From Candidatus Undinarchaeota archaeon (GTDB lineage Archaea > Undinarchaeota > CAZWFW01), in assembly GCA_964633445.1 (NCBI GenBank), contig CAZWFW010000001.1, positions 6,339 through 70,338 of the forward strand: a stretch of 64,000 bases of DNA, given 5' to 3'. Shown here piece after piece: positions 4,503 through 30,010 of the stretch (its first letter is position 1; each line of letters starts with the position of its first letter). The notes below the pieces were generated by a model that had not been told where the DNA came from, did not search any database, and saw nothing but the letters and a program-made list of their open reading frames with translations. Made by a program: the position numbers and the translations under genes.

Positions 4503-5197
4503 TCTTCTTTAGCTTTTAATATTTTTAATAATTTTCTTAAAATTCCTAGCATAGTATTTACCTCCCTACCAGTAAGGTTTGCTCTGCCAATAATCCTCTT
4601 AAACATTATTATAGCTTTTCTTCTTTTCTCCTTACTACTAGGAAATTCTACTATTTCTAAAAGTTCTTCAATATATTTAAATAAAACCTCCTTTTCTCTT
4701 TGGGAGGCAAGCCTAAATTCCCTTATTTTCAAGCTGGATAGCTCATAGAGGAAAATAGCAACGGCATGCGACAAATTTAATGTTGGATAATCTCTTGATG
4801 TTGGAATCGTTACCAAAATATCACACAGTTTTATTTCCTCGTTTAGCAAACCAATATCTTCTCTTCCAAACACAATCGCCACTTCTCCTTTGAGCATTTC
4901 CTTTAAATCCTTCAGCTTAATATAACTTCTTAAAAAATTAGAATCGCTTTTTGGGATCTTCGCAGTAGTTCCAATAACGAAGTCAAATTCTTTTATTGCA
5001 TCCTCAAACTTTCTAAAAATTTTAACATTGTTTACCAGCTTATAAGCGTGCTTTGCAACTTTCTTTATTTTTTCATCCTCAAAACTAAATTGGGGGTTAA
5101 CGACTATTATTTTCTTAAAACCAAAATTCATCATAACCCTTAATATTGCTCCAAAATTCTCAGGGTTTTTTGGTTCAACAAGAATTACAGTTATCAT
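4499..5197 (-). CDS. SpoU/TrmH-family RNA 2'-O-methyltransferase (TrmJ-like)
   Basis: The family-typical N-terminus starts at M29 of the track ORF (MITVILVEPKNPENFGAILRVMMNFGF). Also has VFGREDIGL and NLSHAVAIFLYEL. ATG 5197 forms an ATGA overlap with the upstream stop, so I prefer it to 5281. Confidence 0.85.
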   Translation of the reverse strand: MITVILVEPKNPENFGAILRVMMNFGFKKIIVVNPQFSFEDEKIKKVAKHAYKLVNNVKIFRKFEDAIKEFDFVIGTTAKIPKSDSNFLRSYIKLKDLKEMLKGEVAIVFGREDIGLLNEEIKLCDILVTIPTSRDYPTLNLSHAVAIFLYELSSLKIREFRLASQREKEVLFKYIEELLEIVEFPSSKEKRRKAIIMFKRIIGRANLTGREVNTMLGILRKLLKILKAKEE

Positions 5198-15000: not shown

Positions 15001-16701
15001 TTCATAAGCATAAGTTCTATAGTAAGGATAACTGTATTTTCTGCAATCTTTTAAGACATATGCTCTTATAATAGCGTTCTGATATGAGGGCTTAGCTTTG
15101 ATAGTTAATTCAGCTTTTGCATCATTATCAAGCCTTACAGCATAGAAATCTGATGCATAAGATCCTAGAACACTCACATAAACGATTTCGTTTCTGTACT
15201 TCTCCTTTGCCAGTATGCCAAGCTTTATATCCTCGTTTTCTCTATATTCTTTCTTATCAGAGAAAACAACTATGTTTTTTTGCTCAATTTCATTAACTTG
15301 TGGTCTGCAATAAATACCCCTTCTGGAGTAATACCAGCAAGGTTTATAATTTAGGAAAATCTCTTTTTCTGCTGAATAAACACCATCATCTATGCTGAGT
15401 GTTATTTTAACATATTCAACTCCGCTTGGGTACCTGAACTTTATTAAAAACCCAGCACCCCTGCTTGCACCTTCGTCTAGTACCTCCTCCTGCAACTCGT
15501 TATCAACAATTTTATATCCTATAAGCTTCCATGTAGTTCTCGCATTACTTGCCTCTGTGCTATCAGGATATGCTATTGAAACGTAAACTTCAACATTGTC
15601 CCCCTCTCTATAAACTTCCTTGTTTTTCTGAATTTCTACATTAAATGCAGATGTTACGATGGGTATTTTCTTTATAGCTGAGGTTTCTATACCTAAAACT
15701 TCGCTTTTTGCTTCTATTACAAGGGACTTTGGATATCTCCAATAATGGTGGTAGTAATAGGGAATCTCAAAGGGAAATCTAACTATGCAAATTCCTTGGG
15801 AATTTGTTATACAGCTATCCTGTTGAATAATATTCCTTTCACGCCACCCAGATACTTCCAAATAAACCTTGTAATCGATTTTCTGGTTAACAACTGGATC
15901 TCCGAAAATATAAGTCAATTTGAATTTTACCTCAAACTCCTTATCATCCCTTGTAATCCAGTTTTTGCTCAGAATATCTAATTTAGCCTCTGGTTTTTCG
16001 TATTTTCTTATCTCGACAACCAATTTTTCAGTAGTATTCCCATATAATGCTGTAAATGAATAGTTTCCAATCTCAGCTTCTTTATCTATAGGGAAGCTAA
16101 GGGAAAAATGACTAAAATCGTCTGTCTCAACATTTTTCTTAAAGATAATTCTATTAGACGGATTTCTTACTATTAAAGCAACGGTTTTATGAGTAATTGG
16201 TGCGTATGTTCCATTGATTTGCTGCCAAACAAAACCAGCAACCTTTATTTCCTGGCCTGGCTTATAAATTTTTCTATCTGAATATAAATATATCTTAGCT
16301 TTTCTTTTCTCGATCTTTATCATTCTAGAGATCTCTCTGCTCTTACCGTGGTGCCATGCTTTAACTTTAAGCTCATAATTCCCTTCTGGTAAGTCTGGCA
16401 AAGTTATTCTTGCCATACCTGCTTTATTTGCTATTACGGTTTCCTCAAAATCGCCAATCCCAAAAGTTATTTTTGCATAAGGTAGTGGTTTGTAATCGGG
16501 GGATAATGCCATAGCAAAACCGTTAAGCTCTTCACCAGCATATTGCGTATCAGATATTTCTAAAAGCAGATTTATTTTCGTGTATTTGTTGTATAAATAG
16601 AAAAGCTTAGATAACCATAGCGGTGATGAGAAAAGCAGAATGCTTAAAGCTATAAGAGATATTATCGCAAACTTCAATTTTCTAAAAGAAACTTTTTTCA
16701 T
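12064..16701 (-). CDS. Alpha-2-macroglobulin-like thioester protein with internal multi-TM block
   Basis: N-terminal signal-anchor. Several MG-type repeats (SDRKIYKPGQEIKV, SDKKEYRENEDIKL, SDKKIYEPREEATI). Hydrophobic block at about nt 14177-14660. Then YFPDTALW...LPDSITTWQVLALAAS, the thioester motif YPYGCVEQT (CVEQ = 13402-13413) and DGGWGWW in a TED-like region. Confidence 0.85.
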   Translation of the reverse strand: MKKVSFRKLKFAIISLIALSILLFSSPLWLSKLFYLYNKYTKINLLLEISDTQYAGEELNGFAMALSPDYKPLPYAKITFGIGDFEETVIANKAGMARITLPDLPEGNYELKVKAWHHGKSREISRMIKIEKRKAKIYLYSDRKIYKPGQEIKVAGFVWQQINGTYAPITHKTVALIVRNPSNRIIFKKNVETDDFSHFSLSFPIDKEAEIGNYSFTALYGNTTEKLVVEIRKYEKPEAKLDILSKNWITRDDKEFEVKFKLTYIFGDPVVNQKIDYKVYLEVSGWRERNIIQQDSCITNSQGICIVRFPFEIPYYYHHYWRYPKSLVIEAKSEVLGIETSAIKKIPIVTSAFNVEIQKNKEVYREGDNVEVYVSIAYPDSTEASNARTTWKLIGYKIVDNELQEEVLDEGASRGAGFLIKFRYPSGVEYVKITLSIDDGVYSAEKEIFLNYKPCWYYSRRGIYCRPQVNEIEQKNIVVFSDKKEYRENEDIKLGILAKEKYRNEIVYVSVLGSYASDFYAVRLDNDAKAELTIKAKPSYQNAIIRAYVLKDCRKYSYPYYRTYAYEYVSPKLVKGSYGVPCPYDEISIYVLPDKKLDVEIISDKKIYEPREEATIKFKVSKDNKPISALVSFAVIDKSVQILKENKFSPFEHYYANPAQSIRVSLTAIEVDRWKVNEIAEKLILLAIVIVLLTLALASVYLAKTGRARYLYAILPTLILGAAFILAVIIDVLGIGYVDEDAWATISTASLLGALVILKVKRRPTRYYLAGLAVPFSLLLLVISGASAFWILPIFIIALAILAAIRKDMRKPVLVCVAILSAIFVVVFLLIGMFLMGGMVMRAAPQYLTYEEWAAGIGAPKTLEEEARGVGYIPKGIEIRYYFPDTALWKEIIAKDGTAEVKFKLPDSITTWQVLALAASKNCDVGSNNDAEVIAKKDFFIKVHVPSEATVGDEVTISARVFNFLDESIDAYVTLIQSKKFVILDNETKVVRLRPNEAKEVSWYVKLTSYGSANVTVVAYSGEYSDGVRKQILITPKIEPITLSFSGVLESNYVKKEFEIYENAIPEFTNAKILIQPTLLSISIVGVERLARYPYGCVEQTMSSLYPDIIIKMLLKEKGMLDEEFEKKLDDMIAKGLQRIYSFRHSDGGWGWWENDATNEFMTAYVLFGLAKAKQVGFYVDGSIIDGAQRVLMQRQEYNGAWHGSHWLRGNDVAMTAYVTLALLESGVSKDDYHIQKALEYLEDHENVEDAYTLSLIILAYEKAGRDTSHLAEKLYDMAVNNHWHGKALAGDVETTACAIRALLATENVKYYGIVQEAIKWLIENKRYYGWYTTKDTAEALLAIYEYSKITKEQKADYKLSIFVNGKEVQSFTVTEENKDELYIIDVTKYLETGRNVIEIRKEGIGNPYYTIIVKQTTETLQILPEKDIIVEKSYNKTVARVGDVVNVKISIRGNDIYYVILEDYIPPGFRVKETSLKDDLSENIVRYEINGNKISWFINHLGEASIEYELVAEYPSVVYAKPAVAYGMYSDIRGQSEAITLIIK

Positions 16702-16707
16702 GAAAAT

Positions 16708-18504
16708 TCACCACATAACCTTCTTAATGGCATTCCTTTTCCATACTATGATTATAATGAAAAGAATTAGCAAAAATGTCCAGAGAATCTTAGACTCAAG
16801 CTTCATGCCAACAACCTCAACATAAACTTCCTCATTCGGTTTCAAATTTCTAAATTTCCCTTCCAAATACTTATTCATTCTTGGAATCTCTATTTCTATT
16901 GGTACACCTCTCTTTGTTACAACAACCTCCTCAACTTGCTTCTCAACACCTATCTCCCTTAAAACTTGAGCTTGCTGAGCAAAAAATCCTTTACCACCCA
17001 GCGTTATTTGTCTATATGGTCTTGTGGGAATAAATTCAACAATCTTCAACTCCATTTCAGGTTTCGAGCTCATTTTCAATTTTTTGAAATCTGTTGGCAG
17101 ACCTAGCTTAATCGCCCCTTCAAGAATTGGTGCTGAAATCTTGGGCAAATACGCTAAGTAAGTTAATAGAACATTTCCTTTTTGAACATTATCTTGTGTG
17201 TAGATTACTATTAATTCGAAATCTCTATAGTCATTACCAACTTTTTCTGAAAGAGGCAGAGGAATTTTTATTTTTTCTTGCTCCTTATAGGCGAAAGCAT
17301 TTTCACCGTCTATCAAAGCTCCCCAGAACGTTGCATTATCTGGCAAAGTCAACTCCAATGTTTTACCAGGCTCCGTATTTACAATGCGATACGTTGCTTT
17401 AACAAGTGCAAAATCCTTTGTAGGTAATATATCGTACGTTGCTTGCTTAATAATAGTAGCTAAAACACCTACTTCCTCAACTTTTTCTTTGGATATAAGC
17501 AGAGAAAATTTTTGGCCTTCATACGTTGCCACCAAAACGTAATCTGCAGCATATTTTCTTCCAAAATCCAGCAAATCCTGCCTTTCATACGGGGATATCT
17601 CCCTTACATTAGTTGCAGATGTAACGTTAATCTCAAATCCCTTTGCATATACTGCCAATGCACAAGCATACGCATCTGTAGCTCCTTTTTCTAAAAATAT
17701 CGTTGGCTGTGTAATATTGAGAGTTAGAACTTCAAATTTAAGCGTTAATAGAAGACTGTTTGTAGATCTAGGCAAGACTGCTGAGAGAGTATTATTTTCA
17801 ATCTCAGCAAAATCTAAAAGATGATAGTCGCTTCCAGCATAAGTGGCTATCGCATCCTCCAATCTATAGTTTGATGGGAAACTTAATTTTATGTAATTAA
17901 AGCTACCCGCGGATGTTGGGTGATATATAAATATTGCTTTGTCCTTATCTGCTAGGGTTATTATAGCATATGCCCTCTCTATTTCCTGCGGTAAAGTTAT
18001 CTCCTGCCATTCAGATTTAACATTTAGAGAATTTGCATTTGTAACCAGCCAAACAATCTTGTTTTCAACCCATTCATAGGGTTCAGGAGTGGGGTGAACC
18101 TTTAATTTTCTATAAAATTCATTATCGAACTCATATTCCATCTCCAAAATTTTTGCGGGGCTTGGCAAAGAAATTGAAGATTCCGCCTTATTCTTACAAA
18201 TCTTAATCCCATCAGCTAAGATTATATGTTTACCAGAAGTTAAATTAATTTTAAGCAAGTTGTAAGCATATTGCTCCTCAGAAACTGGGTTATTATCTAC
18301 ATAAACATCTTCAACAGCAAAATCCCCTAATGGCAGAGTGATTGTTGTATTCCTGAATGCTGAAATTTCTATTCTTAGCGAGACATCGCACTTATTCTCA
18401 GAAATCTTGTAAGCAAGTTCGTATTTATTTATGGTGTAATCCTGAGCATGTGCGTAATTCAAGCTTGTCAAGACCAGTAAAAGTAATATAAACAGACCCC
18501 TCAT
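16708..18504 (-). CDS. Exported protein with C-terminal TM anchor, unknown function
   Basis: 598 aa with signal peptide MRGLFILLLLVLTSLNYAHA|Q and C-terminal TM ILWTFLLILFIIIIVW followed by KRNAIKK. 6-nt gap to the A2M-like gene and ATGA overlap with the upstream gene. Confidence 0.7.
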   Translation of the reverse strand: MRGLFILLLLVLTSLNYAHAQDYTINKYELAYKISENKCDVSLRIEISAFRNTTITLPLGDFAVEDVYVDNNPVSEEQYAYNLLKINLTSGKHIILADGIKICKNKAESSISLPSPAKILEMEYEFDNEFYRKLKVHPTPEPYEWVENKIVWLVTNANSLNVKSEWQEITLPQEIERAYAIITLADKDKAIFIYHPTSAGSFNYIKLSFPSNYRLEDAIATYAGSDYHLLDFAEIENNTLSAVLPRSTNSLLLTLKFEVLTLNITQPTIFLEKGATDAYACALAVYAKGFEINVTSATNVREISPYERQDLLDFGRKYAADYVLVATYEGQKFSLLISKEKVEEVGVLATIIKQATYDILPTKDFALVKATYRIVNTEPGKTLELTLPDNATFWGALIDGENAFAYKEQEKIKIPLPLSEKVGNDYRDFELIVIYTQDNVQKGNVLLTYLAYLPKISAPILEGAIKLGLPTDFKKLKMSSKPEMELKIVEFIPTRPYRQITLGGKGFFAQQAQVLREIGVEKQVEEVVVTKRGVPIEIEIPRMNKYLEGKFRNLKPNEEVYVEVVGMKLESKILWTFLLILFIIIIVWKRNAIKKVMW

Positions 18505-20490: not shown

Positions 20491-20506
20491 AAAGTTTAAA
20501 TATTTT
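20491..20506 (+). promoter_or_regulatory. Putative TATA/BRE promoter of rgy
   Basis: aaagTTTAAATAtttt lies about 25-33 nt upstream of ATG 20529, implying a very short or absent leader. Confidence 0.4.
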
Positions 20507-20528
20507 GAGGGGATTCCAACATACAGGT

Positions 20529-23500
20529 ATGAAAGCCATTTTCAAAGACTTTTGCCCAAACTGTAATGGGGAAATAGATGATGAGAGACTTTGGCATAAA
20601 GTTCCTTGCGAAAAGTGTTTACCCTTATCTTTGGACAAAGTTAAAAAACTAAGCGAAAATCTCAGCAATTTAGAATTTAAAGAGCTAATTTACGAGTTAC
20701 TAAATGAAAGAGGAACTCTAAAGAATTATTCAAAAATATATGAGCTGGAGAGAAGGGTTGAGGAAGTTAACAAGATTTTTGAGGCATGTATAGGCAGCGG
20801 TCTTTGGTCTGCCCAGAAAGTTTGGGTAAAGAGAATTTTAAACAAAGTAAGTTTTGCTTTGATAAGTCCTACAGGAATGGGAAAAACAACGTTTGGTATG
20901 GTAATGTCCCTTTATTTGGCAAAGCATGGTAAGAAATGTTACATAATTTTGCCAACGACGATCCTTGTTAAACAAATAAACGATAGACTTGAAGAGTTTA
21001 TGGAAAAAAGCGGGGTTAGAGTTAGAGTTTTAGCATATCATACCGAATTAAAAAAAGGCGAGAAAGAGGAGGTAAAGGAGAAGATAACTAAAGGAGAATT
21101 CGATATATTAGTAACATCAAGTCAATTCCTAGCAAGAAACTTTGAGATAATAAAAAAGCAGAGATTCTATTTCATATTTGTGGATGATGTTGACGCTTTT
21201 CTTAAAGCATCCAAAAACATTGACAGGGTTTTGTTTCTCATGGGATTTTCTGAAGATGCCATCAAAGCCGCTATGGAGATTATTAAAATTAAAAAACAGT
21301 TAGTTGTCAGGAGGGATAAAAATCTCGAAGATAAGCTAAAAACTCTTGAAAGAAGTTTGGAGGAGTTTAAGGATGTCGAAAGCATTCTTGTGGTTTCCTC
21401 AGCAACTGGTAAGGTTAAGGGCGATAAGGTAAAAGTTTTTAGAGAATTACTCAACTTTGAAGTTGGCACTGCAAGGGAAGGGGCTAGAAATATAGAGCAT
21501 ATTTGGCTTGAAGGCAAGCTAGAGGATATCTGTGAAATAATTAGGAAAATGGGTGGTGGTTGCTTAATATTTGTTCCTATAGATGCTGGTACAGAGCTTG
21601 CCAAGGAAATTGAGCAGTTTTTAATTTCGAAAGGAATTAACGCTAAAGCTGTTCATGCAAAAACTAAAAAGAGTGTTATTGATCGCTTTGCTAAAGGGGA
21701 AATTGATGCGTTGATAGGAGTAGCGAGTTATTATGGTGTTATTGTGAGAGGATTGGATATTCCCGAGAGGGTTAGGTATGCAATATTTTATGGAATTCCG
21801 AAATTCAAATTCTCCTTAGAGATAAAGGAGAGGAATCCGATTAGGGTTCTGTCCCTGCTATCTACCTTAAGGGAATTTTCAAGTAACAAAGAAAGAGTTG
21901 ATAGAATGATTATAAAATTAAGAAGGATACTGTCAAAGCTGTCACCAGAGGATTTGAGGAAAGTTGAGGAAAGCCAACAGTTAAATGATTTTTTGGTGTA
22001 TGTTAAGCAAGAATTTGAAAAAGCTGCTGAATTTTTGCAGAATATGCTCAAAAATAAGGAGGTTCTAGATAAAATAGGAAAAAGCCCGTATATTTCTCTA
22101 GTTAAAGAAAGTGAAGGATTATTCATAAAAATACCTGATGTAAGAACATACATACAGGCTACAGGTAGAACTTCAAGAATGTATGCTGGTGGTATTACCA
22201 AAGGAGCTTCCTTTGTCTTTATAGATGATGAAAAGGTGTTTAATGGTTTGAAAAGGCAGCTGATATTACTTGATGAGGAGTTCAAAAGTATTGGTGAAGT
22301 TGATCTTAAGAAGATTAAGGAGGAGATAGAAAGGGATAGGAAATTGCTTACTGAAATCAGGGAGGGTAAAGTTAAAGTTGAGGCAAAAGAACCCGTTAAA
22401 TCTTGTTTGTTTATTGTTGAATCCCCAAACAAAGCAAAAACAATTGCAAATTTCTTTGGTAGACCATCTAAGCGTAGAATTGGTGAATTGGTTGCTTATG
22501 AAACACATACTGGAGATTTCGCTTTAACAATAATTGCAACTGGTGGACATATTTTAGATTTAGCTCATGATGGTATATATGGGGTTAAGAGGGTTAATGG
22601 TAAATTTATTCCGATCTACACGACAATTAAAAAATGTAGGAAATGTAATGAGCAATTTGTTGAGGGTGATGTATGCCCGAATAAGAAATGCAATTCAAAG
22701 GACATATTTGATAGCAGGTATACAATTGAAGCATTAAGGCATCTTGCAGATGAAATAGGATATGTTATAGTCGGTACAGATGCTGATTCGGAAGGTGAGA
22801 AAATTGCTTGGGATGTAGCAACATTAATCGCACCTTTTGCAAAAGAAATAAAGAGAGCTGAGTTTCACGAGGTTACTAGGAGAGCTATTTTGAACGCTTT
22901 GGAAAATCCAAGAGAAATTGACGAATTTAGGGTTAACGCTCAAATTGTAAGGCGTATTGAGGATAGGTGGATTGGCTTCTACTTAAGCCAAGATTTATGG
23001 AGAATATTTGAAAAGGGTTGGCTTTCGGCTGGTAGGGTGCAAACGCCAGTACTTGGCTGGGTAATTGAGTTTGAGAAGCTTGCAAGAAAGAAGAAGTCAG
23101 TAGTTAGGATAGTACTTGAGAATGATGCTGTTGTGGATTTTGAGTTTAAAAACATTAGACAGGCTAAGAAATTTGCTGAAGATGTTGAGGAAGCGTATGT
23201 GGAAATACTTGAGGAGAAAGAGGAGAAAATAAAGCCGAATCCCCCATATACAACTGATACTTTACTAAGGGACGCTTCTCGCTTCTTCAGACTTGATGCT
23301 CCAAAGGTTATGCAAATTGCGCAGGATCTTTTCGAGGCTGGGTTATGCTTGACACCAGACACCTACGTAATTATGCATGATGGAAGTATTAAGAAGATAG
23401 GCGATATCTCCGAAAATGAAAATGTTTTGGGCTTGAACAATCTACATGAGATGCCTGCAAAGGTACTAAGGTTTTGGAAGATACCGTATAAAGGTGTGAT

Positions 23501-25598
23501 CAAAGAAATAGTGCTTGAGAATAATTATAGCATAAAGGCTACTCCAGATCACGGAATTTTTGTTTACAGAGATGGTAAATTTGGTTGGGTTTCAGCTAAG
23601 AATGTAAGGGTTGGAGATTATGTGGCAGTAGCTTTCAATGTCAACATTAAAAGAGAAAGCTTAGGTTTACTCGAATTATTGGCGAAGCTTGGAATATTGG
23701 ATATATGCGTCGAATTCAAGAAAGATTCAAAACTATTTGAAAAGCTTAAAAAGAGAGTTGATGGAAGTAAGGCAAGTGCAAAATATAAGTATATGGGAAG
23801 CAGGGCAATTCCTTTAAAGTATTTAGATAAATGGGGCATTGATCTAAAAGCCGTTGAAAGGGAAGCAACCACCATTTCCAAGCAGAGATCCTCAGCTGAA
23901 AAAATTCCAATTTTTAAATTAAATAGCGATTTTTGGTACTTCGTTGGACTGGTTATGGGTGGTGGAACAATCGAAGAAGAGAAAATTGTAATATCTCAAA
24001 AAGATGCTAAGGAAATCAAAAGGATACTTGAAAATGTGTTTCCATTTGCCAATGTGAGGATTGCTGGCACGCAAGTTTACCTTGCTAATTCGATTATAGC
24101 AGAGATTTTAAGAAAACTGGATGTAAGGGGCAAGTTAAATGGTTTAGTGTTTTCACTGCCAGAGGATTGCATAAATGCTATGATAGCTGGATATATTGAT
24201 GCTGATGATAGCATTTCGTTGAAGTTTGACAAGAAATGTTGTAAAAACAATCTTAGAATTGTTATAAGTAATAAAGAAAGGGAAAAAATTGAGAAAATTG
24301 GATATTACCTATGCTTGATTGGTATTTTGAACACATTGCATAAGGATGAAAAAACAGGTATTTGGAAACTAATTTTAGGCAATAAATCGCTTAAGACGTT
24401 TAAAAAGAAGATTGGTAAACATCTTAGAACTAGGAGAAAGATTTTTGAGAAAGCATACAAAGCATGCGCAAGTGAGCATCTAGAGTCAGATTTTGTTCCG
24501 TTTAGTAAATTTTTCAAGTTACTTAAATTTGGGAAAGGTGTTGAGGGTAGAATTCTCAAAGAACTTTGCACTGATGCTCGAAATTTGGATGACTGTGCAT
24601 GTATACAAAGAGAAAAGCTTAAGAAGGTAGTTAAATTGGCTGAAGACACTGATGTTAAGACATTTTTGCTTGAACTGTTAAATGCCAATGTTTCATGGGT
24701 TAGAGTGAAGGAGGTTAGGAATAGGCAATATAACGGATATGTTTACGATATAACAACTGCAACATCAAACTTCTTTGCTAATGCGATACTTAACCACAAC
24801 TGCACCTATCACCGTACAGATTCAACAAGAGTATCAAAGGAAGGTTTGAACGTTGCTAGGGAATTGGTTGAGGAAAGTTTTGGCAAGGAATATTTCAAAG
24901 CAAGAATTTGGTATATGGAAGGTGCCCATGAGTGCATAAGGCCCACAAAACCACTTACGAGAGAGTATCTCGAGGAGTTGATTAATACTGGCGCGCTAAC
25001 ATTGCCTAGACAATTAACCTTTTGGCATCTTGTAGTTTATGAGCTCATTGTGAATAGATTTATGGCAAGTCAGATGAGAGAGGCTAGAGTTGTTAAACAG
25101 AAAGTAAAAGTAAGTGTTAAAGATGTTGAAAAAGAAGTTGAAGGATACGCTAAGGTAGCTGATGAAAGTTTCCTAAAGATAACTAAGGTACCAATGATAC
25201 CCGAGTTTAGGAATGGTAGGGTAAAAGTTAAAGATGTAAAGGTAATGAGGGTACCATCATCCAAGTTGCTTACGCAAGCGGATCTCGTTGCTTTAATGAA
25301 GGAGAGGGGTATAGGTAGGCCATCAACCTATGCTACAATAATTGCTAAATTGTTCAAAAGGGGTTACCTTTACGAGCTTGGTAAGGAGAAGAGGATTAAT
25401 AAAATTGTGGCAAGGAAAATTGGCAAGGAAGTTTTTCAGTATTTGATTAGCAATTATCCTCATTTAATTAGCGAGGAGCGTACAAGGAAACTTGAGGAGG
25501 ATATGGATATGATAGAGGAGGGTAAGAAAGATTATCAGGAAGTTCTAAATGAAATTTACAAGGAAATCTTTGAGCCAGAAATACTCAAGCAATATTAA
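20529..25598 (+). CDS. rgy: Reverse gyrase (helicase-topoisomerase IA fusion), interrupted by an intein
   Basis: N-terminal Zn finger CPNCNG...CEKC, helicase Walker A SPTGMGKTT and FVDDVDA. Toprim/topo IA region with active-site CTYHRTDS restored after intein removal. The track start 20505 is TTG and the first ATG is 20529. The extein is 1204 aa from ATG 20529 (1212 from the track TTG start). Confidence 0.97.
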   Translation: MKAIFKDFCPNCNGEIDDERLWHKVPCEKCLPLSLDKVKKLSENLSNLEFKELIYELLNERGTLKNYSKIYELERRVEEVNKIFEACIGSGLWSAQKVWVKRILNKVSFALISPTGMGKTTFGMVMSLYLAKHGKKCYIILPTTILVKQINDRLEEFMEKSGVRVRVLAYHTELKKGEKEEVKEKITKGEFDILVTSSQFLARNFEIIKKQRFYFIFVDDVDAFLKASKNIDRVLFLMGFSEDAIKAAMEIIKIKKQLVVRRDKNLEDKLKTLERSLEEFKDVESILVVSSATGKVKGDKVKVFRELLNFEVGTAREGARNIEHIWLEGKLEDICEIIRKMGGGCLIFVPIDAGTELAKEIEQFLISKGINAKAVHAKTKKSVIDRFAKGEIDALIGVASYYGVIVRGLDIPERVRYAIFYGIPKFKFSLEIKERNPIRVLSLLSTLREFSSNKERVDRMIIKLRRILSKLSPEDLRKVEESQQLNDFLVYVKQEFEKAAEFLQNMLKNKEVLDKIGKSPYISLVKESEGLFIKIPDVRTYIQATGRTSRMYAGGITKGASFVFIDDEKVFNGLKRQLILLDEEFKSIGEVDLKKIKEEIERDRKLLTEIREGKVKVEAKEPVKSCLFIVESPNKAKTIANFFGRPSKRRIGELVAYETHTGDFALTIIATGGHILDLAHDGIYGVKRVNGKFIPIYTTIKKCRKCNEQFVEGDVCPNKKCNSKDIFDSRYTIEALRHLADEIGYVIVGTDADSEGEKIAWDVATLIAPFAKEIKRAEFHEVTRRAILNALENPREIDEFRVNAQIVRRIEDRWIGFYLSQDLWRIFEKGWLSAGRVQTPVLGWVIEFEKLARKKKSVVRIVLENDAVVDFEFKNIRQAKKFAEDVEEAYVEILEEKEEKIKPNPPYTTDTLLRDASRFFRLDAPKVMQIAQDLFEAGLCLTPDTYVIMHDGSIKKIGDISENENVLGLNNLHEMPAKVLRFWKIPYKGVIKEIVLENNYSIKATPDHGIFVYRDGKFGWVSAKNVRVGDYVAVAFNVNIKRESLGLLELLAKLGILDICVEFKKDSKLFEKLKKRVDGSKASAKYKYMGSRAIPLKYLDKWGIDLKAVEREATTISKQRSSAEKIPIFKLNSDFWYFVGLVMGGGTIEEEKIVISQKDAKEIKRILENVFPFANVRIAGTQVYLANSIIAEILRKLDVRGKLNGLVFSLPEDCINAMIAGYIDADDSISLKFDKKCCKNNLRIVISNKEREKIEKIGYYLCLIGILNTLHKDEKTGIWKLILGNKSLKTFKKKIGKHLRTRRKIFEKAYKACASEHLESDFVPFSKFFKLLKFGKGVEGRILKELCTDARNLDDCACIQREKLKKVVKLAEDTDVKTFLLELLNANVSWVRVKEVRNRQYNGYVYDITTATSNFFANAILNHNCTYHRTDSTRVSKEGLNVARELVEESFGKEYFKARIWYMEGAHECIRPTKPLTREYLEELINTGALTLPRQLTFWHLVVYELIVNRFMASQMREARVVKQKVKVSVKDVEKEVEGYAKVADESFLKITKVPMIPEFRNGRVKVKDVKVMRVPSSKLLTQADLVALMKERGIGRPSTYATIIAKLFKRGYLYELGKEKRINKIVARKIGKEVFQYLISNYPHLISEERTRKLEEDMDMIEEGKKDYQEVLNEIYKEIFEPEILKQY
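23346..24800 (+). mobile_element. Intein (485 aa) with LAGLIDADG homing-endonuclease domain in the rgy topoisomerase active site
   Basis: Starts ...EAGL|CLTPDTYV and ends ...AILNHN|CTYHRTDS. Block B TPDH is present. LAGLIDADG-like motifs are FVGLVMGGGT and MIAGYIDADD. Boundaries were placed by codon counting from 20505. Confidence 0.9.
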
Positions 25599-25636
25599 GT
25601 TTATGACATAATCACTAGAACGGATTTGAAGCTTAT

Positions 25637-25696
25637 CGTTAACATCGTTAAGAATGTTAAGTTTATTATCGTTAAGTAAAATTTAAGTAGTGTTAA
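25637..25696 (+). repeat. Left copy of 60-bp direct repeat (GTTAA pentamer array)
   Basis: cgttaacatcgttaagaatgttaagtttattatcgttaagtaaaatttaagtagtgttaa. 54/60 identical to 27003-27062. Five GTTAA units. It ends 16 nt before ATG 25713 and contains a TATA-like taaaatttaag. Confidence 0.85.
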
Positions 25697-25712
25697 GTTA
25701 ATTTGATTTTTT

Positions 25713-27002
25713 ATGAGGCTAGAGGAATTCTTTAAATTGATTGAAAATGGAGAAAGTGAGAGAATAGAGTTTAAGGAGAAAGTAACGAAAAATATTGCTG
25801 AGGAGATAGTTGCATTTGCAAACTCTTTGGGAGGTTACTTGTTAATAGGAGTGAAAGACGATAAAACACTTGTAGGTCTTAATACTAAAGAATTGCAAGA
25901 GGCCAAAAGATTCATATCTAATTGCCTAGCGAATATTGCTCCACCCATAACAGTAAAATTTCATGAAGTGAGAATAAATAGAAAGAGTTTTCTAATAGTG
26001 GAAGTTCCAAAATCAAAATATATTTGTTCCATTGGTGGTATAGCCTACATTAGAGTTGGCACATCCAAAAGACCTTTATCAATTCAAGAAACACTAACTT
26101 TAGGCGCAGAAATTCTACTTTTTCCCTTCGATAAAACACCAACAAAAATTCCTGCAAAATTAATCTGGGAAGATGCCTTGAAGAGGTACGAAAGAGGTTT
26201 GAAGGAGAGAAATATTAAGGTAAGCGATATCTACTATCATTTAAAAAAATTGGATGTAATTATATCAAAGAAAGGTAGAGATTTCTTGACATTTGGAGGT
26301 GCCTTAATTTTCCTTGAAAACCCCCAAGAATATTTTCCACAGAGTTACTTAAGGGTTTGCTTTGAAGAAGGTTACACAAGAATCTCAGGCCCTCTATGGA
26401 AAATTATTGACAAGTTTGTGGAAGCTTTCTTTAAGCAAGAGATCCTTAGATATGTGCTAAAAGGATTTAGGAGAATAGATTATGAAATGTTGCCAGCAAG
26501 GATTTTAAGAGAAGGTGTAACTAACGCTTTGATTCATAGAAATTATACAATATCCTCTGAAACTTTTGTTTCCTTAGAAAGCAACGCTATCAAAATAAAG
26601 AATCCTGGAGCCTTTCCTCCTGGAGTTACCCCTGAGGATCCTCATCCTGTGGCGAGAAATCCACTAATATATGAATTGATGTTTAATATGGGTTACATAG
26701 AGAAGCAAGGTGCTGGGGTAAAAATGATATTTGAAGAAGCGAGAAAAAATCCTTATTTGGATGTTGAATATAAGATTTCGCCAAACTTCACAACATTGCT
26801 ATTAAAATTTAAGGTTGAGCTAGATGAAGTCGATAAGAAAATACTAGACGCCTTAATTGGTCCAAAATCTTCAAGTGAGATTGCTAGAATTGTAGGATTA
26901 AGCAAACCAGCTGTAATTAATAGGCTAAACAGACTAATTGATGCCAAACTTGTTAAAAGGATTGGAAGTGGGGCAAAAACCAAATATAGGTTAACAAGTT
27001 AA
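25713..27002 (+). CDS. Schlafen/AlbA_2-type DNA-binding protein with HATPase_c_4-like and C-terminal wHTH domains (COG2865-type putative regulator)
   Basis: ESERIEFKEKV...IVAFANSLGGYLLIGVKDD (AlbA_2 signature), REGVTNALIHRNY (ATPase-like region), and a C-terminal wHTH (SSSEIARIVGLSKPAVINRLNRLIDAKLVKR). Confidence 0.8.
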   Translation: MRLEEFFKLIENGESERIEFKEKVTKNIAEEIVAFANSLGGYLLIGVKDDKTLVGLNTKELQEAKRFISNCLANIAPPITVKFHEVRINRKSFLIVEVPKSKYICSIGGIAYIRVGTSKRPLSIQETLTLGAEILLFPFDKTPTKIPAKLIWEDALKRYERGLKERNIKVSDIYYHLKKLDVIISKKGRDFLTFGGALIFLENPQEYFPQSYLRVCFEEGYTRISGPLWKIIDKFVEAFFKQEILRYVLKGFRRIDYEMLPARILREGVTNALIHRNYTISSETFVSLESNAIKIKNPGAFPPGVTPEDPHPVARNPLIYELMFNMGYIEKQGAGVKMIFEEARKNPYLDVEYKISPNFTTLLLKFKVELDEVDKKILDALIGPKSSSEIARIVGLSKPAVINRLNRLIDAKLVKRIGSGAKTKYRLTS

Positions 27003-27062
27003 CGTTAACATCGTTAAGAGTGTTAAATTTTCTAGCGTTAAGTAAAATTTGAGTAGTGTTAA
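27003..27062 (+). repeat. Right copy of 60-bp direct repeat (GTTAA pentamer array)
   Basis: cgttaacatcgttaagagtgttaaattttctagcgttaagtaaaatttgagtagtgttaa. It starts on the nucleotide after the stop codon of the 25713-27002 gene. Confidence 0.85.
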
Positions 27063-27090
27063 AAATAGTAAGCTTAAATGGAAGAATAGT

Positions 27091-27105
27091 TTTTATTTAA
27101 ATATT
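27091..27105 (+). promoter_or_regulatory. Putative TATA promoter of thiM (leaderless-type spacing)
   Basis: ttttaTTTAAATAtt. The octamer starts 23 nt upstream of ATG 27119. Confidence 0.4.
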
Positions 27106-27118
27106 GTTTTTTAAGTTA

Positions 27119-27931
27119 ATGAATGTAGAAATTTCGCTAGAAAAAGATTTAAGCCTAATAAGAAAAAATAAGCCGCTAATCCTCCACTTAGTTAATTATG
27201 TTGCTATGAACGATTGCGCAAATGTTACGCTTGCTTTGCATGCTTCTCCAATAATGACAAGCTATGAGGACGAAATTAAGGAAATTGTTAGCAAATCTGA
27301 TTCTCTTTATATAAACATTGGCACACCAACAAGAAGAATAATTGATGTTATTAAACAAGCATGCAAAGTCGCAAATGAAAATAAAAAGCCAATAATTCTT
27401 GACCCTGTTGGAGTTGGGGCTACTAAGGCAAGAACTAGTTTTGTTCATTATTTACTCAAGAATTATGAAATAGATGTTTTGAAAGGCAACTATGGCGAAA
27501 TTTGCTCAGTTGCTGGCTTAAATAATGCTATGAAGGGTGTCGACTCCTTAGAAATTAATGAAAAAATTGTTTTAAGAAGTTGCAAAGAAATTGCTAGGGA
27601 ATATAGTATTTGTGTTGTAGCTACTGGTGAAAAGGATTTTGTTGTTGATAAAAATGAAAATGCTTATGTAGTGTTAAATGGTCATGAGATGCTTAGCATG
27701 CTCACAGGTAGCGGATGCATGCTTGGTAGCGTAATTGCCTGCTTTTTAACAACACAAAAGCCATTAAATGCTTGCTTAGAGGGATTAGTAGTTTTTAATG
27801 TCAGCGCTGAAATTGCTGCGAAGCATGCTAATGGTTTGGGTAGTTTTAAAGTAAGATTGCTCGATGAAATATCAAATGTTGATACTGAGCAAATTAAGAA
27901 ACTTGCAAGGATTAAAGTTTGCCAGTTTTAA
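27119..27931 (+). CDS. thiM: Hydroxyethylthiazole kinase ThiM
   Basis: PLILHLVNYVAMNDCANVTLALHASPIM, DPVGVGAT and GSGCMLGSVIA match ThiM motifs. The track start 27104 is TTG and the first ATG is 27119. Confidence 0.9.
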   Translation: MNVEISLEKDLSLIRKNKPLILHLVNYVAMNDCANVTLALHASPIMTSYEDEIKEIVSKSDSLYINIGTPTRRIIDVIKQACKVANENKKPIILDPVGVGATKARTSFVHYLLKNYEIDVLKGNYGEICSVAGLNNAMKGVDSLEINEKIVLRSCKEIAREYSICVVATGEKDFVVDKNENAYVVLNGHEMLSMLTGSGCMLGSVIACFLTTQKPLNACLEGLVVFNVSAEIAAKHANGLGSFKVRLLDEISNVDTEQIKKLARIKVCQF

Positions 27932-29445
27932 GGATTTAGCAAGAATAGAATAATGTTGGCTAGTAAGGATGTGAAAATGGCAGTTAATATTAAAAATAGA
28001 CAAAGCATGCCAACAGCAACTAATGTTTTAGGAATTACTTGCTTTATATTGATCTTTTTCAAATATCTTAGCTTCAAATATCTCAGCAATATTGCTATTG
28101 TTGGGATAATGCATATAAGGAGGAGAAACTCTAAGGGGTGATATTCCAGTAAATCTAGTAGTAATGATAGAATAAAGCCAAAAATGTAAGGAATTGCTAC
28201 AAAAAATGCTACTTTTTTAATACCTCTGTTGAACTTCAAGAAGAATAGAAGTAATAAAACTGCTATAGTAACGCTTATAGGCACCAAATTATCTGAAATT
28301 GCGATTAAAATCGAAGCAGAATTTGAAGGGAGCAGATACAAATCATCCTTTATTTTATTAGAGTCTATTTCAAATTTCGTGTAAACGTTATCTCCTATTC
28401 TTCCATATTTCCCTTTGTAATTTCCTTTATAGGCCCCTTTCGCGTACACAGCAATTTTTATATCATGGTTAGCCATTAAGAGCAAAGGATAATAAGGCTT
28501 GTTATCCAGGGGTATAAACTCTATTTCTATATTAGCTCTTCTTTGACATTTAAAAAATAGGTCACGAGCAAGACCCCAACGCGCTTCACGGACTTTTTCA
28601 CATGTTATAGGGATTTTTGTGTAGTCTTCTATGTAACCAACAATAAAGTATGTTGTATCACTTTTAAGCTTTTCAAGCATCTCTTTTTCTTCTTGAGTCA
28701 AATTTCCAAATTTTGACAAATATGCAATGATGTTCTCGCTTGATGGTATTAGTTCAAGAGCTATGCCGTATTTTTTAATTGTTAGCAGCTTCTTAACTTG
28801 CACCTCTTCAGAAACACCAGCGGCACCTATATAAAAAGTAAATAAATCTAGCCAAGAAGTCAAGGGGCGAATTACTGTAGCTTCAGTAACATCGGAGGCA
28901 ACTTTTCTTAGGGATTCTTCTATAGGAATGAACTCTAGATTAATGTTGGTTTCCGTTATGTCGAGTTTAATTTGCTTAGGATATTTAGTTTCAATAGGGA
29001 TAACCCAAAAAATGTTTGTAAAGTTTTTCTTATCAATTTTTTCATAGAAGTTCTCTGGTGAAATGTCCCAGCAGTAGATGCAATTATAACAATAGACACA
29101 ATTTCTGGAAATCTTCCCATACTTCTCTATACAGTGCTCCAGTACAATCCAATGAAATTTTGGTTCTGGACAAGTTTCCTTATATAATATATGAGAACTA
29201 ATAGAAAGGTTTAAAGGAAAAATCTTCACGTTGCCAACGTATGTTTTTATAATCTCTTCTCTTCCAAAATCATTTATTATAGTCATTTTTTCTTTTTCAC
29301 CATCATACTCAACAATTCCAACCTGATCGTAGCCGTACAACGACTTTAGCAAAGCTGTTCTTTCTTCAAAAAAGTAAACAGTTCCATCGCAAAACACACT
29401 AGGTAAAGTTAAAAGAAATGCTATAGCAATAAGGAGAAACCTCAT
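27928..29445 (-). CDS. Membrane protein with Cys-rich extracytoplasmic domain and C-terminal multi-TM region, unknown function
   Basis: The signal-like N-terminus begins at M22 (MRFLLIAIAFLLTLPSVFC). Contains the cluster CVYCYNCIYCWD and about 4 C-terminal TM helices. The alternative start 29508 would overlap the upstream gene by 17 nt. Confidence 0.55.
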   Translation of the reverse strand: MRFLLIAIAFLLTLPSVFCDGTVYFFEERTALLKSLYGYDQVGIVEYDGEKEKMTIINDFGREEIIKTYVGNVKIFPLNLSISSHILYKETCPEPKFHWIVLEHCIEKYGKISRNCVYCYNCIYCWDISPENFYEKIDKKNFTNIFWVIPIETKYPKQIKLDITETNINLEFIPIEESLRKVASDVTEATVIRPLTSWLDLFTFYIGAAGVSEEVQVKKLLTIKKYGIALELIPSSENIIAYLSKFGNLTQEEKEMLEKLKSDTTYFIVGYIEDYTKIPITCEKVREARWGLARDLFFKCQRRANIEIEFIPLDNKPYYPLLLMANHDIKIAVYAKGAYKGNYKGKYGRIGDNVYTKFEIDSNKIKDDLYLLPSNSASILIAISDNLVPISVTIAVLLLLFFLKFNRGIKKVAFFVAIPYIFGFILSLLLDLLEYHPLEFLLLICIIPTIAILLRYLKLRYLKKINIKQVIPKTLVAVGMLCLFLILTAIFTSLLANIILFLLNP

Positions 29446-29491
29446 TAAGTTTTTATTTTGATGTCCCATTAATAAACTTAAGGAAAATCTT

Positions 29492-30010
29492 TTATTTGGA
29501 ATTCTCAAATTTCTTTATTTCTTCCTGCAGATGCAGGAGTAACCACGAAACCCTACCTTTTTCTACCAATTCTTTGATTAACCTTTCCACTTTGCTTAAA
29601 CTTGCTGTCTTCCCGCTCTTAACTTCAACAAATATTATTTCCTCAGGCTCTTCTTTATGCAAACCTTTAAACACGACAAAATCCACGGGAGTCCCTAAGA
29701 ATCTAACATCCTTTGGTTCAATTCCGTAATTTGAAAACAAAATTATTGGTGCTAGTTGCTCACCTACTCTTCCCAAAATAGTTGCTGCTGATCTTTTTAC
29801 AGCATCCTCCCTGATATCCTCCTCCGCTTTAAGCCTCCATTCCTCAAATAAAACTTTTGCTCTTTCATTAGCTTCTCGTTCAAGCTCTGAAACACGCCAG
29901 TTATCAAATAATTTCCTTGCTCTTTCCTCAATTTCGTCTTTGATTTTCAAGTAATTCCAGAATAATACTAACAAAGCAACAATTAATATTAATAGTATAA
30001 GTTCAAGCAT
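29492..30010 (-). CDS. Membrane-anchored protein with coiled coil and Holliday-junction-resolvase-like PD-(D/E)xK domain (COG4741-like, unverified)
   Basis: N-terminal TM (LELILLILIVALLVLFW), then charged repeats (WRVSELEREANERAKVLFEEWRLKAEEDIRED). C-terminal GTPVDFVVF...IIFVEVKSGKTASLS fits a D...E-x-K nuclease core. Confidence 0.5.
   Translation of the reverse strand: MLELILLILIVALLVLFWNYLKIKDEIEERARKLFDNWRVSELEREANERAKVLFEEWRLKAEEDIREDAVKRSAATILGRVGEQLAPIILFSNYGIEPKDVRFLGTPVDFVVFKGLHKEEPEEIIFVEVKSGKTASLSKVERLIKELVEKGRVSWLLLHLQEEIKKFENSK

Follow-up and report, generated by a model that had tools for sequence, protein, structure and literature searches.

The window analyzed here, a 64-kb stretch of archaeal DNA, carries a gene for a putative regulator (25713 to 27002; 429 amino acids) between two other genes of the forward strand. 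Upstream lies a reverse gyrase gene that contains an intein (20505 to 25598) and falls outside the module described below. Downstream lies thiM, which encodes hydroxyethylthiazole kinase (27119 to 27931; Pfam HK family, E = 7e-77). Both flanks had been named in the initial annotation, and Pfam searches confirmed them. The start codon of thiM is the ATG at 27119, not the TTG at 27104 chosen by the ORF caller, and a candidate TATA box for this gene, TTTTTATTTAAATA, occupies forward-strand positions 27090 to 27103, starting 29 nt before the ATG.

The regulator had been described initially as a Schlafen/AlbA_2-type protein with a winged helix-turn-helix (wHTH), and Pfam matched both parts: PF04326 (SLFN_AlbA_2) covers residues 14 to 122 (E = 2e-25), and residues 364 to 428, a C-terminal domain of ArsR/AsnC type, match several wHTH families. 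The central region matches PF13749 (HATPase_c_4; E = 3e-14), a GHKL-like domain with a histidine-kinase-like ATPase fold, and the protein carries a conserved E267/N271/H275-R-N-Y motif. The AlphaFold monomer model (mean pLDDT of 87) has as its top structural match PDB 3LMM, the uncharacterized protein DIP2311 (Foldseek, E = 8e-21; phmmer, E = 9e-11). Other structural matches are Schlafen N-terminal domains, 2KYY (over the SLFN_AlbA_2 part), histidine-kinase CA domains, and ArsR-like wHTH domains. The regulator thus has the AlbA_2/HATPase_c_4/wHTH domain set of COG2865-type, DIP2311-like proteins.

Two copies of a GTTAA array bracket the regulator gene

The copies of a direct repeat lie on either side of this gene, at 25633 to 25696 (copy 1) and 26999 to 27062 (copy 2), and are identical at 57 of 64 positions. 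A 60-bp version of the repeat (25637 to 25696 and 27003 to 27062) had been reported with 54/60 identities, and our recount gave the same figure. Each half of the repeat occurs exactly twice in the window, against zero occurrences expected from 100 dinucleotide-preserving shuffles; the repeat is real and nonrandom. Both copies contain five GTTAA units on the forward strand, as had been counted before, at 25638, 25647, 25656, 25671, and 25692 in copy 1 and at 27004, 27013, 27022, 27037, and 27058 in copy 2. Both sets are spaced 9-9-15-21. At the sequence level, two separated clusters of identical unit geometry, as in looping systems, are therefore present, 1,366 nt apart. A search of both strands of the window for at least four GTTAA within 70 nt, a check that the initial annotation had suggested, returned these two bracketing arrays only.

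Units 4 and 5 of copy 1 enclose an A/T-rich, TATA-like stretch, GTAAAATTTAAGTAGT (25676 to 25691), which copy 2 keeps at 27042 to 27057. In the window and in its relatives, this A/T-rich box lies about 25 to 31 nt before the ATG between units 4 and 5; judged by sequence, the units surround a TATA-like box whose distance from the ATG suits an operator that overlaps its promoter. We infer that copy 1 serves the regulator gene as promoter and operator. It ends 16 nt before the ATG at 25713, as had been noted earlier. The intervening 16 nt of the forward strand (25697 to 25712) have no duplicate downstream and contain a sixth GTTAA (25697 to 25701). In archaea, the TATA box usually lies about 26 nt from the transcription start, and from this distance transcription is predicted to start within 25697 to 25712, giving a near-leaderless mRNA.

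Copy 2 begins at the stop codon. The repeat had been said to start right after the TAA (27000 to 27002), which holds for the 60-bp version, but the homology reaches 4 nt further back, over the stop codon. Three extra GTTAA had also been counted in the last codons of the gene. There are only two (at 26990 and 26998, within 26990 to 27002 on the forward strand), the second of which overlaps the TAA stop; the supposed third is unit 1 of copy 2. Because they are not conserved in relatives, these extra units are probably specific to the lineage of the window.

Bracketing recurs among archaeal homologs

The four closest homologs (54 to 60% amino acid identity; GC content of 27 to 48%) have a five-unit upstream array and a copy starting at the stop codon, and all have different neighbors. 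A spacing of 9-9-(14/15)-21 is kept in the clade of the window, with the same geometry upstream of all its members. In a survey of 80 further loci, 17 archaeal loci showed a match between upstream and downstream flanks far above in-locus controls. Bracketed loci were found in Thermococcus, Methanosarcinaceae, Woesearchaeota, Iainarchaeum, Hadarchaeota, Thermoplasmata, and unclassified archaea, in neighborhoods unrelated to one another. The second copy is located at the stop codon in 17 of approximately 32 archaeal loci from deep clades, with an offset of -26 to +21. Essentially all archaeal homologs examined have an upstream array whose last units enclose an A/T-rich, TATA-like box, with the ATG a short distance behind, and no further array copy was found within 3 kb on either strand of the examined loci. 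The surveyed bacterial homologs showed no bracketing repeats of such a kind.

The bracketed state is scattered over the whole archaeal subfamily tree, deep branches included, and the most parsimonious history would be ancestral bracketing followed by several losses. Since it recurs in about half of the archaeal relatives, bracketing is an inherited family trait and not the scar of a one-off insertion. About half of the archaeal homologs, including those of Pyrococcus abyssi, Thermococcus barophilus, Archaeoglobi, and Methanomicrobia, lack the downstream copy; it is therefore dispensable. This promoter-gene-promoter design is apparently undescribed, and we found nothing in the searchable literature library on the targets of this regulator family or on bracketing.

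The repeat unit differs by lineage (CGTTAA, ACYGTAAA, TCGTAAAC, GTTAAC, TTCGTAACA, AATCGTCAG, and GTMCACC), and the most deviant units accompany the most deviant recognition helices. Because arrays of the same style lie upstream of the homologs and their unit varies with the protein, this co-occurrence and covariation make the arrays look like operators of the wHTH regulator. One reading in the initial annotation was that an operator array had been duplicated so that the regulator controls both itself and thiM. Its first part stands, in that the arrays look like the regulator's operators, but control of the downstream gene is not the general reason for the duplication: of the 16 scorable bracketed loci, about 9 have a convergent and about 7 a codirectional downstream neighbor. 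Given the convergent neighbors, the second copy is not simply the promoter of the next gene.

Constraint, conversion, and decay of the copies

With a single exception, units 1 to 3 are invariant in all upstream and downstream copies of the clade of the window. Three downstream copies (loci L006, L007, and L008) show decay of unit 4, the TATA-like box, and unit 5, and orthologous downstream copies have derived states of their own in common (L007 with L008 and L016 with L017). When copy 1, copy 2, and the single array of the closest relative, L101 (about 86% DNA identity to the window), were compared, 10 of 10 substitutions fell outside the 25 core GTTAA bases. There are 3 to 4 array changes per branch, against a neutral expectation of about 9; divergence at 4-fold sites is 0.29, and the array differences have a p of about 1e-4 to 5e-4. 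The L101 array evolves approximately three times more slowly than 4-fold degenerate sites, and its GTTAA cores are unchanged.

Spacer variants common to both copies of one locus indicate concerted evolution, or gene conversion, of spacers within loci, and it is common for the two copies of a locus to match at every position (63 nt in L005, 71 nt in L010, and 51 nt in L033). Copy 1 and copy 2 of the window are as divergent from each other as either is from the L101 array; therefore, conversion has been infrequent in the window. Mismatches between the copies of a locus amount to 60/725 in units and 77/421 in spacers (ratio of about 0.45; odds ratio, 2.5; p = 1e-6). We considered and rejected this difference as proof of selection on the downstream copy, since constraint on the upstream copy alone would yield about the same ratio.

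The closest relative has a single array in front of thiM and no regulator gene beside it

L101 was found via a protein search followed by a contig look-up; a metagenome scan with a ThiM query returned relatives at about 41% identity only. In L101, one array precedes thiM, and the regulator gene is absent there. The sequence of the candidate thiM TATA box and its 29-nt spacing are kept. In the window, copy 2 lies 27 nt upstream of this conserved box, a distance that differs by 19 nt between the two species. Synteny between the window and L101 ends precisely where the array begins on its left side. The left flank of the L101 array is like that of copy 1 and its right flank like that of copy 2, as expected for a crossover between the two copies. 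No regulator ortholog above 60% identity was found in the L101 assembly, GCA_054010715.1, a metagenome-assembled genome (MAG) that may be incomplete. A protein search with the C terminus of reverse gyrase, seeking the gene that follows it in the genome of L101, returned nothing closer than 49% identity.

A single repeat copy between rgy and thiM in a related genome had been put forward as proof of insertion. A single array, in front of thiM, is what we found in L101. Since the promoter-gene-promoter layout is inherited across deep archaeal clades, this array is more simply read as a deletion scar than as proof of insertion. Because the L101 site has one array and no regulator gene, the repeats may also serve as substrates for recombination or deletion. 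No strain-level presence/absence polymorphism of the module was seen in four metagenome contigs of the species of the window.

In a separate observation, the three assemblies of one sample all begin at 25690, and the upstream M48 peptidase was found only in the sample that spans the region. The start at 25690 fits a coverage gap or a structural variant equally.

A putative autoregulated module

We propose, with a probability of roughly one half, that the locus is a self-contained autoregulated archaeal module: a regulator gene, its promoter-operator array, and a functional second array behind the stop codon that would act through a loop or as a roadblock. The protein would bind the repeated units through its wHTH, and occupied units around the TATA-like box and the start site would repress the regulator's own promoter. 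The downstream array would also be bound and functional, either in cooperation with the upstream array, with the 1.3-kb gene looped out between the two, or as a protein roadblock or insulator at the gene's 3' end. Being direct repeats, the arrays would recombine: gene conversion would keep both alike, and crossing-over between them would delete the gene and leave a single array, as before thiM in L101. Two counterpoints apply. Gene conversion from a selected upstream copy could keep a functionless downstream copy for some time, and the always-direct orientation and tight stop-codon position are not specifically predicted by the looping model.

Archaeal transcription factors are poorly characterized, and we know of no function for COG2865/DIP2311-type proteins, for which a structure has been solved. 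The locus offers a likely DNA target for one of them, in the form of an array sequence, a unit geometry, and lineage-specific variants, as well as a conserved cis-architecture that places a second promoter-operator array at the stop codon. Should the downstream array be functional, the locus would be a compact natural case of operators on both sides of their own gene, acting as a loop, roadblock, or insulator, in a TBP/TFB-type system. The bracket would also exemplify repeat-driven gene loss, with a single-array scar in the closest relative, and such scars could mark the past presence of the module elsewhere.

Alternative explanations

The array-gene-array unit might instead be an excisable or mobile single-gene cassette with the arrays as recombination sites, which we regard as fairly unlikely. 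A circle of the gene and one array would be excised while a single array stays behind, and re-integration, perhaps assisted by the protein, would restore the bracket. The single array of L101, with synteny breaking at its edge, is the empty site that a cassette would leave, and it is the one case of presence/absence at orthologous sites. The modules of L006, L007, and L008, at 80 to 84% DNA identity, are homologous only within a block that starts at the first array or slightly before it (about 45 nt upstream when L007 is compared with L008) and ends with downstream units 1 to 3; neither flank shows homology. Unrelated flanks at this level of identity fit a mobile element at least as well. The frequent complete identity of the two copies of a locus is also in keeping with a cassette, and in L023 and L007/L008 a few bases that resemble the gene's 3' end stand before the upstream copy, as a circular or tandem form would leave them.

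Yet a recombinase, transposase, or reverse transcriptase is absent, and no short target-site duplications were seen. The GC content of the gene tracks that of the host flanks, and the protein tree broadly follows taxonomy, which argues for mostly vertical inheritance. L012 and L015, which have no downstream copy, also have unrelated flanks; relocation is thus independent of the bracket. Searches of plasmids, phages, and IMG/VR gave no close homolog, only bacterial ones at 30% identity or less. Moreover, the derived decay shared by orthologous downstream copies argues against regeneration of the repeat at each move, and the four metagenome contigs mentioned above likewise speak against a cassette.

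The initial annotation had considered insertion into a preexisting GTTAA-array site, but the array appears to be the gene's own promoter, and the layout is inherited in unrelated neighborhoods. As for an integron-type cassette, the arrays are direct pentamer repeats without inverted-repeat structure, and neither the 10 kb around the module in the window nor most related loci contain an integrase. As for a transposable element, the regulator is the only gene, the terminal direct repeats seem to be its own promoter, and no short duplications were found outside the arrays. An outer 97-nt direct repeat at L016, examined as a possible target-site duplication, seems to be an unrelated repeat of the intergenic region, with no upstream counterpart in L017. 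The GTTAA-array pattern in IMG/VR retrieved unrelated tandem or coding repeats only, plus one AT-rich contig resembling a giant virus.

According to another reading, which we consider unlikely, copy 2 is the operator of thiM, the regulator controls itself, thiM, and possibly more genes, and the duplication serves thiM control. In the lineage of the window in particular, thiM coregulation is possible. Copy 2 keeps its five units and TATA-like box close before the conserved thiM TATA box, and in L101 an intact, slowly evolving array with unchanged cores lies directly before thiM with no regulator gene adjacent. The codirectional neighbors in about 7 of 16 bracketed loci would also suit such control, but in the approximately 9 of 16 with a convergent next gene the copy is wedged between gene ends (as in L005, L006, L008, and L019), and the downstream genes are functionally unrelated between loci. 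Nor are there other arrays in 64 kb of this genome, or within 3 kb at any locus. Two features of L101 count against thiM control as well, namely, the 19-nt shift in the array-to-TATA distance and the missing regulator ortholog, the latter in a possibly incomplete MAG.

The downstream copy could also be functionless, a relic of one ancient duplication that is repaired by conversion from the selected upstream promoter until it is lost. The concerted changes in spacers within loci are evidence of conversion, the copy has been lost in about half of the lineages, the unit-to-spacer mismatch ratio of about 0.45 fits upstream-only constraint, and L006, L007, and L008 display partial decay. This decay is uneven, however, with distal units perfect and the promoter-proximal part lost, and the decayed state is stably common to orthologs and has not been converted back. 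The copy persists among proteins that are only about 30 to 45% identical, with the unit changed in both copies, and in the window, where conversion is infrequent, copy 2 shows no core change. We consider a relic quite unlikely.

Highly unlikely is a minimal selfish or switchable element, in which the protein, bound to two arrays, would promote synapsis and recombination so that a circle is excised and re-integrates at single arrays; if true, it would explain both the fluid positions and the near-identical repeats without a canonical recombinase.

An RNA element or riboswitch was rejected, given no Rfam matches and no tRNA nearby: no TPP riboswitch was found between the regulator and thiM (no Rfam match at E <= 1 in 24000 to 29000) or at gathering score in the whole window. 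PADLOC defense models gave partial domain-level matches only (pAgo-associated and Csa3/CasR HTH), with no partner genes nearby. Oligo-T terminators after the stop codon showed no consistent pattern, and a scan for bacterial-type promoters and terminators was uninformative, the host being an archaeon.

Comparison with known systems

For the autoregulated module that we favor, the closest structural counterpart of the protein is DIP2311 of Corynebacterium diphtheriae (PDB 3LMM), which, like other COG2865-type "RecG-like" putative regulators, shares the three-part architecture and the fold. DIP2311 comes from structural genomics, and we know of no function for it. With regard to the promoter, autoregulated archaeal repressors of the wHTH/Lrp type (MDR1, LrpA, Phr, Lrs14, and the TrmB family) are alike in having units around the TATA box and a near-leaderless start. 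Units around the BRE/TATA and the start site are the classical archaeal way to block recruitment of TBP/TFB or RNA polymerase. Unlike these repressors, the module protein has additional AlbA_2 and GHKL-like domains, and we know of none among them with a second operator array behind the stop codon.

LTR retroelements and solo LTRs also have promoter-bearing direct repeats flanking a coding region, and recombination leaves one repeat, as in the window versus L101. In contrast, the module has no reverse transcriptase, integrase, primer-binding site, or target-site duplication, its repeats are about 60 nt long, and orthologous downstream copies are inherited and not regenerated per insertion. Integron cassettes and Xer/dif modules (IMEX and pdif) likewise place a single gene between short sites in varied neighborhoods, but the ends of the module are not imperfect inverted repeats of the attC or dif type, there is no association with an integrase or Xer, and the sites appear to be the gene's own promoter.

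The nearest functional analogy may be lambda CI with OL/OR, in which a repressor gene also lies between multisite operator arrays at least 1 kb apart; in the module, cooperative binding to the two arrays and looping would sharpen autoregulation in a similar manner. The lambda operators are mirror oriented, with outward-facing lytic promoters and 17-bp palindromes for an HTH dimer, whereas the module has a direct promoter copy at the stop codon, direct-repeat units of 5 to 9 nt, and an archaeal TBP/TFB-type promoter. The auxiliary operators of lac, gal, deo, and ara are similar in being distant extra sites, sometimes in or beyond the coding sequence, that raise the local repressor concentration. 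They consist, however, of one or two single sites and not of a duplicated five-unit array, and they are neither placed at the regulator's stop codon nor conserved family-wide. Finally, ParR/parC of plasmid R1 offers a possible parallel for the arrays themselves, with two sets of five short direct repeats around the par promoter, cooperative binding, and an adjacent autoregulating gene. In parC, both clusters are found upstream of the operon and function in plasmid segregation, whereas in the module they bracket a chromosomal gene.

Two array copies flank the regulator gene

The initial annotation described a 60-bp direct repeat around a single regulator gene, each copy with five GTTAA units, and both observations hold: 54 of the 60 positions are identical, and the five units have the same start-to-start spacing (9-9-15-21) in either copy. 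The repeat can be extended to 64 nt (copy 1, 25633-25696; copy 2, 26999-27062; 57/64 identical). Each half of it occurs exactly twice in the 64 kb and not at all in 100 shuffles. Apart from these two arrays, neither strand of the window (35% GC) has four or more GTTAA within 70 nt, and all remaining 9-spaced GTTAA pairs lie within coding sequence.

Between the arrays is an ORF of 429 aa (25713-27002) with SLFN_AlbA_2, HATPase_c_4, and C-terminal wHTH domains. Its AlphaFold model (pLDDT 87) gives a predicted fold that matches the uncharacterised DIP2311 structure 3LMM over the full length, and the modeled single domains resemble Schlafen N-terminal domains, histidine-kinase ATP-binding domains, and ArsR-like wHTH domains. 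The neighbors are thiM, whose start is the ATG at 27119, and a reverse gyrase gene (20505-25598) whose topoisomerase part is interrupted, at protein residues about 955-1432, by an intein that includes a LAGLIDADG homing-endonuclease domain. Farther upstream, at about 12700-17300 (L001 1-990 and L148 13551-18188 among the compared loci), is a gene for a 1545-aa bacterial-type alpha-2-macroglobulin with MG2, A2M, and TED domains, an unusual find in an archaeal genome encoding reverse gyrase.

Three contigs (L002, L003, and L004) all start exactly at 25690, within copy 1 and 23 nt before the ATG. They come from ENA k141, Logan, and JGI assemblies, probably of one sample, in which that strain's upstream genes are unassembled. 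The shared start could reflect a coverage gap or a structural variant with its breakpoint in the array.

The upstream array resembles a promoter with its operator

Units 4 and 5 of the upstream array flank an A/T-rich box, which is about 25 to 31 nt before the ATG and has three or four units upstream of it and one between it and the start. Archaeal promoter geometry is well established, and against it this arrangement reads as a promoter with an operator, from which a near-leaderless mRNA is predicted. Different lineages have different repeat units (CGTTAA, ACYGTAAA, TCGTAAAC, GTTAAC, TTCGTAACA, AATCGTCAG, and GTMCACC). The gene is always found together with the array, and the two vary in step. 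It is therefore most economical to infer that the encoded wHTH protein binds to the array and so would regulate its own gene. The most deviant units go with the proteins that have the most deviant recognition helices, a correlation that is weak because phylogeny confounds it.

Bracketing recurs across the gene family

The four closest homologs of the regulator protein (54 to 60% identical) are encoded on contigs of 27 to 48% GC in four different neighborhoods, and each of the four genes is preceded by the same five-unit (C)GTTAA array, with a second copy that starts at its stop codon. The downstream copy is 63 nt long and 100% identical to the upstream one in the homolog L005, and 69 nt and 86% identical in L008; in L006 and L007 it consists of the first three units only (28 to 39 nt).

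We then searched one genome per species with the family alignment, which gave 80 loci. At each locus, the 220 nt ahead of the start codon were aligned with the sequence surrounding and following the stop codon, alongside in-locus controls. Seventeen archaeal loci, the window included, scored far above their controls; they belong to Thermococcus, Methanosarcinaceae, Woesearchaeota, Iainarchaeum, Hadarchaeota, Thermoplasmata, and unclassified archaea. Their downstream copy starts at -26 to +21 of the stop codon (median, about +1), and no further array copy was found within 3 kb when both strands of each whole locus were searched. Another 15 archaeal homologs, including those of Pyrococcus abyssi, Thermococcus barophilus, Archaeoglobi, and Methanomicrobia, keep the upstream array and have no downstream copy. 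Their arrays are of the same style: units are direct and inverted, the last ones flank a TATA box, and the ATG follows after a few bases. The bacterial homologs in the survey showed nothing comparable.

The bracketing seen in the window is confirmed and is more general than that single site. On a neighbor-joining tree, the bracketed state is on deep and shallow branches alike, and the simplest history is an ancestral bracket followed by several losses.

The contig of the homolog L013 ends 3 nt past the regulator stop codon (2722-2725), in GGTTAACGT, which resembles unit 1 of a downstream array; here, too, the assembly may have broken at the repeat. At L016, from a Methanosarcinaceae MAG, a 97-nt GC-rich element (GCTTYGCCCGGAARCCGCC...) forms a direct repeat of 75% identity outside both arrays (2727-2823 and 4537-4633). 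In the related L017 it is present downstream only (5058-5150). It is probably an unrelated intergenic repeat and not a target-site duplication.

A single array in the closest relative

The closest relative found, L101 (GCA_054010715.1), has a ThiM 81% identical to that of the window, and its shared genes are 85 to 88% identical in DNA. It offers the empty site that had been proposed as proof of insertion: thiM is preceded by one intact GTTAA array with the 9-9-15-21 spacing, and no regulator gene lies within 10 kb on either side. The upstream neighbor is a divergent methyltransferase gene, not reverse gyrase, and homology with the window begins exactly at the array's first base. The left flank of the single array is like that of copy 1, the right flank like that of copy 2, and at the seven sites where the copies differ it is a mosaic of both.

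This site does not prove insertion. In the whole family the array serves as the predicted promoter of the regulator itself; a single array must therefore descend from a module, and the simpler reading is that crossing-over between copies 1 and 2 deleted the gene in the lineage of L101. Re-integration into a single-array scar is a conceivable alternative. A regulator ortholog of >60% identity was found only in the window's own species, and as the L101 genome is a MAG, the gene may have been missed there. The L101 array is too well conserved for neutral drift since the split (p about 1e-4). It was either orphaned recently or is still functional, perhaps as an operator of thiM to which a regulator encoded at another site binds.

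The stretch from copy 2 to the thiM TATA box is longer in the window by 19 bases (AAGCTTAAATGGAAGAATAG; 27063-27089 versus L101 9963-9970), which L101 lacks. A GTTAA overlaps the thiM start codon in both (window, 27115-27119). Two genes between thiM and a TIP49-like ATPase gene (27928-30010) are absent there from L101 (10840-11113): a minus-strand ORF of 526 aa (514 aa in the gene call) with no Pfam hit, and an Endonuc_Holl (PF10107) gene. Beside the module, it is the second place where the two genomes differ by an insertion or deletion.

Unrelated flanks and the question of mobility

That array, gene, and array form an excisable or mobile cassette appears unlikely. The best evidence for it is the single array of L101 together with the modules of L006, L007, and L008, which are 80 to 84% identical in DNA but unrelated in both flanks. 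When L006 is compared with the other two, conservation sets in at the first array; between L007 and L008 it does so about 45 nt upstream of that array. In all three comparisons it ends at downstream units 1 to 3. Yet we found no recombinase, no target-site duplication, and no close homologs on plasmids, phages, or IMG/VR contigs; moreover, the GC content of the gene tracks its host, and the protein tree broadly follows taxonomy. Two homologs without a downstream copy (L012 and L015) also have unrelated flanks, so life in fluid regions seems to be a property of the gene rather than of the bracket.

Toxin-antitoxin or abortive-infection genes adjoin the modules at L005 (9074-9863), L006 (8703-9101), and a further locus, L105 (5497-7028) (HepT/MNT pair, AbiEii, resolvase). 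This suggests that the family is often in variable, defense-type regions, though the window copy sits between housekeeping genes.

Evidence for and against a function of the downstream copy

Several observations argue that the downstream copy has a function. Among 11 aligned arrays of the window's clade, units 1 to 3 are invariant with one exception; in L006, L007, and L008 the downstream copy shows decay of the TATA-like box and of units 4 and 5 on either side of it. When copy 1, copy 2, and the L101 array are compared, all 10 substitutions fall outside the 25 core bases, with 3 to 4 changes per branch in 64 nt against about 9 expected (4-fold-site divergence, 0.29). Persistence of the downstream copy across proteins of down to about 30 to 45% identity, with unit sequence turned over in both copies, likewise argues for a function; its absence from half of the family argues against one. 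A unit-versus-spacer mismatch test does not discriminate.

Such a function could be co-regulation of thiM or other downstream genes by copy 2, which we consider improbable for the family and more plausible for the window's lineage. The next gene is convergent in about 9 of 16 scorable bracketed loci and co-directional in about 7, so the downstream copy is not generally that gene's promoter or operator. Less probable still is a relic maintained by gene conversion: conversion operates, since spacer variants are common to both copies of one locus, and could temporarily preserve a copy that has no use, but orthologous downstream copies hold common derived states (one in L007 and L008, another in L016 and L017) that were therefore inherited, not overwritten by conversion, which also speaks for a function.

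A candidate autoregulatory module

We favor, with a probability of about 0.5, a conserved autoregulatory module whose operator array is present twice, once at the promoter and once immediately after the stop codon. The protein would bind the first array and thereby regulate its own gene; the second would be an auxiliary platform for binding that works as a loop or as a roadblock/insulator; and gene conversion and gene loss would be side effects of the direct repeats. For an uncharacterised protein family, the bracket supplies a candidate DNA target together with a cis-architecture that can be tested. PADLOC, NCBIfam, Rfam, and the searchable literature contain no description of this bracketing design. 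We assign the module to a known kind, as a variant of autoregulated repressors with auxiliary operators.
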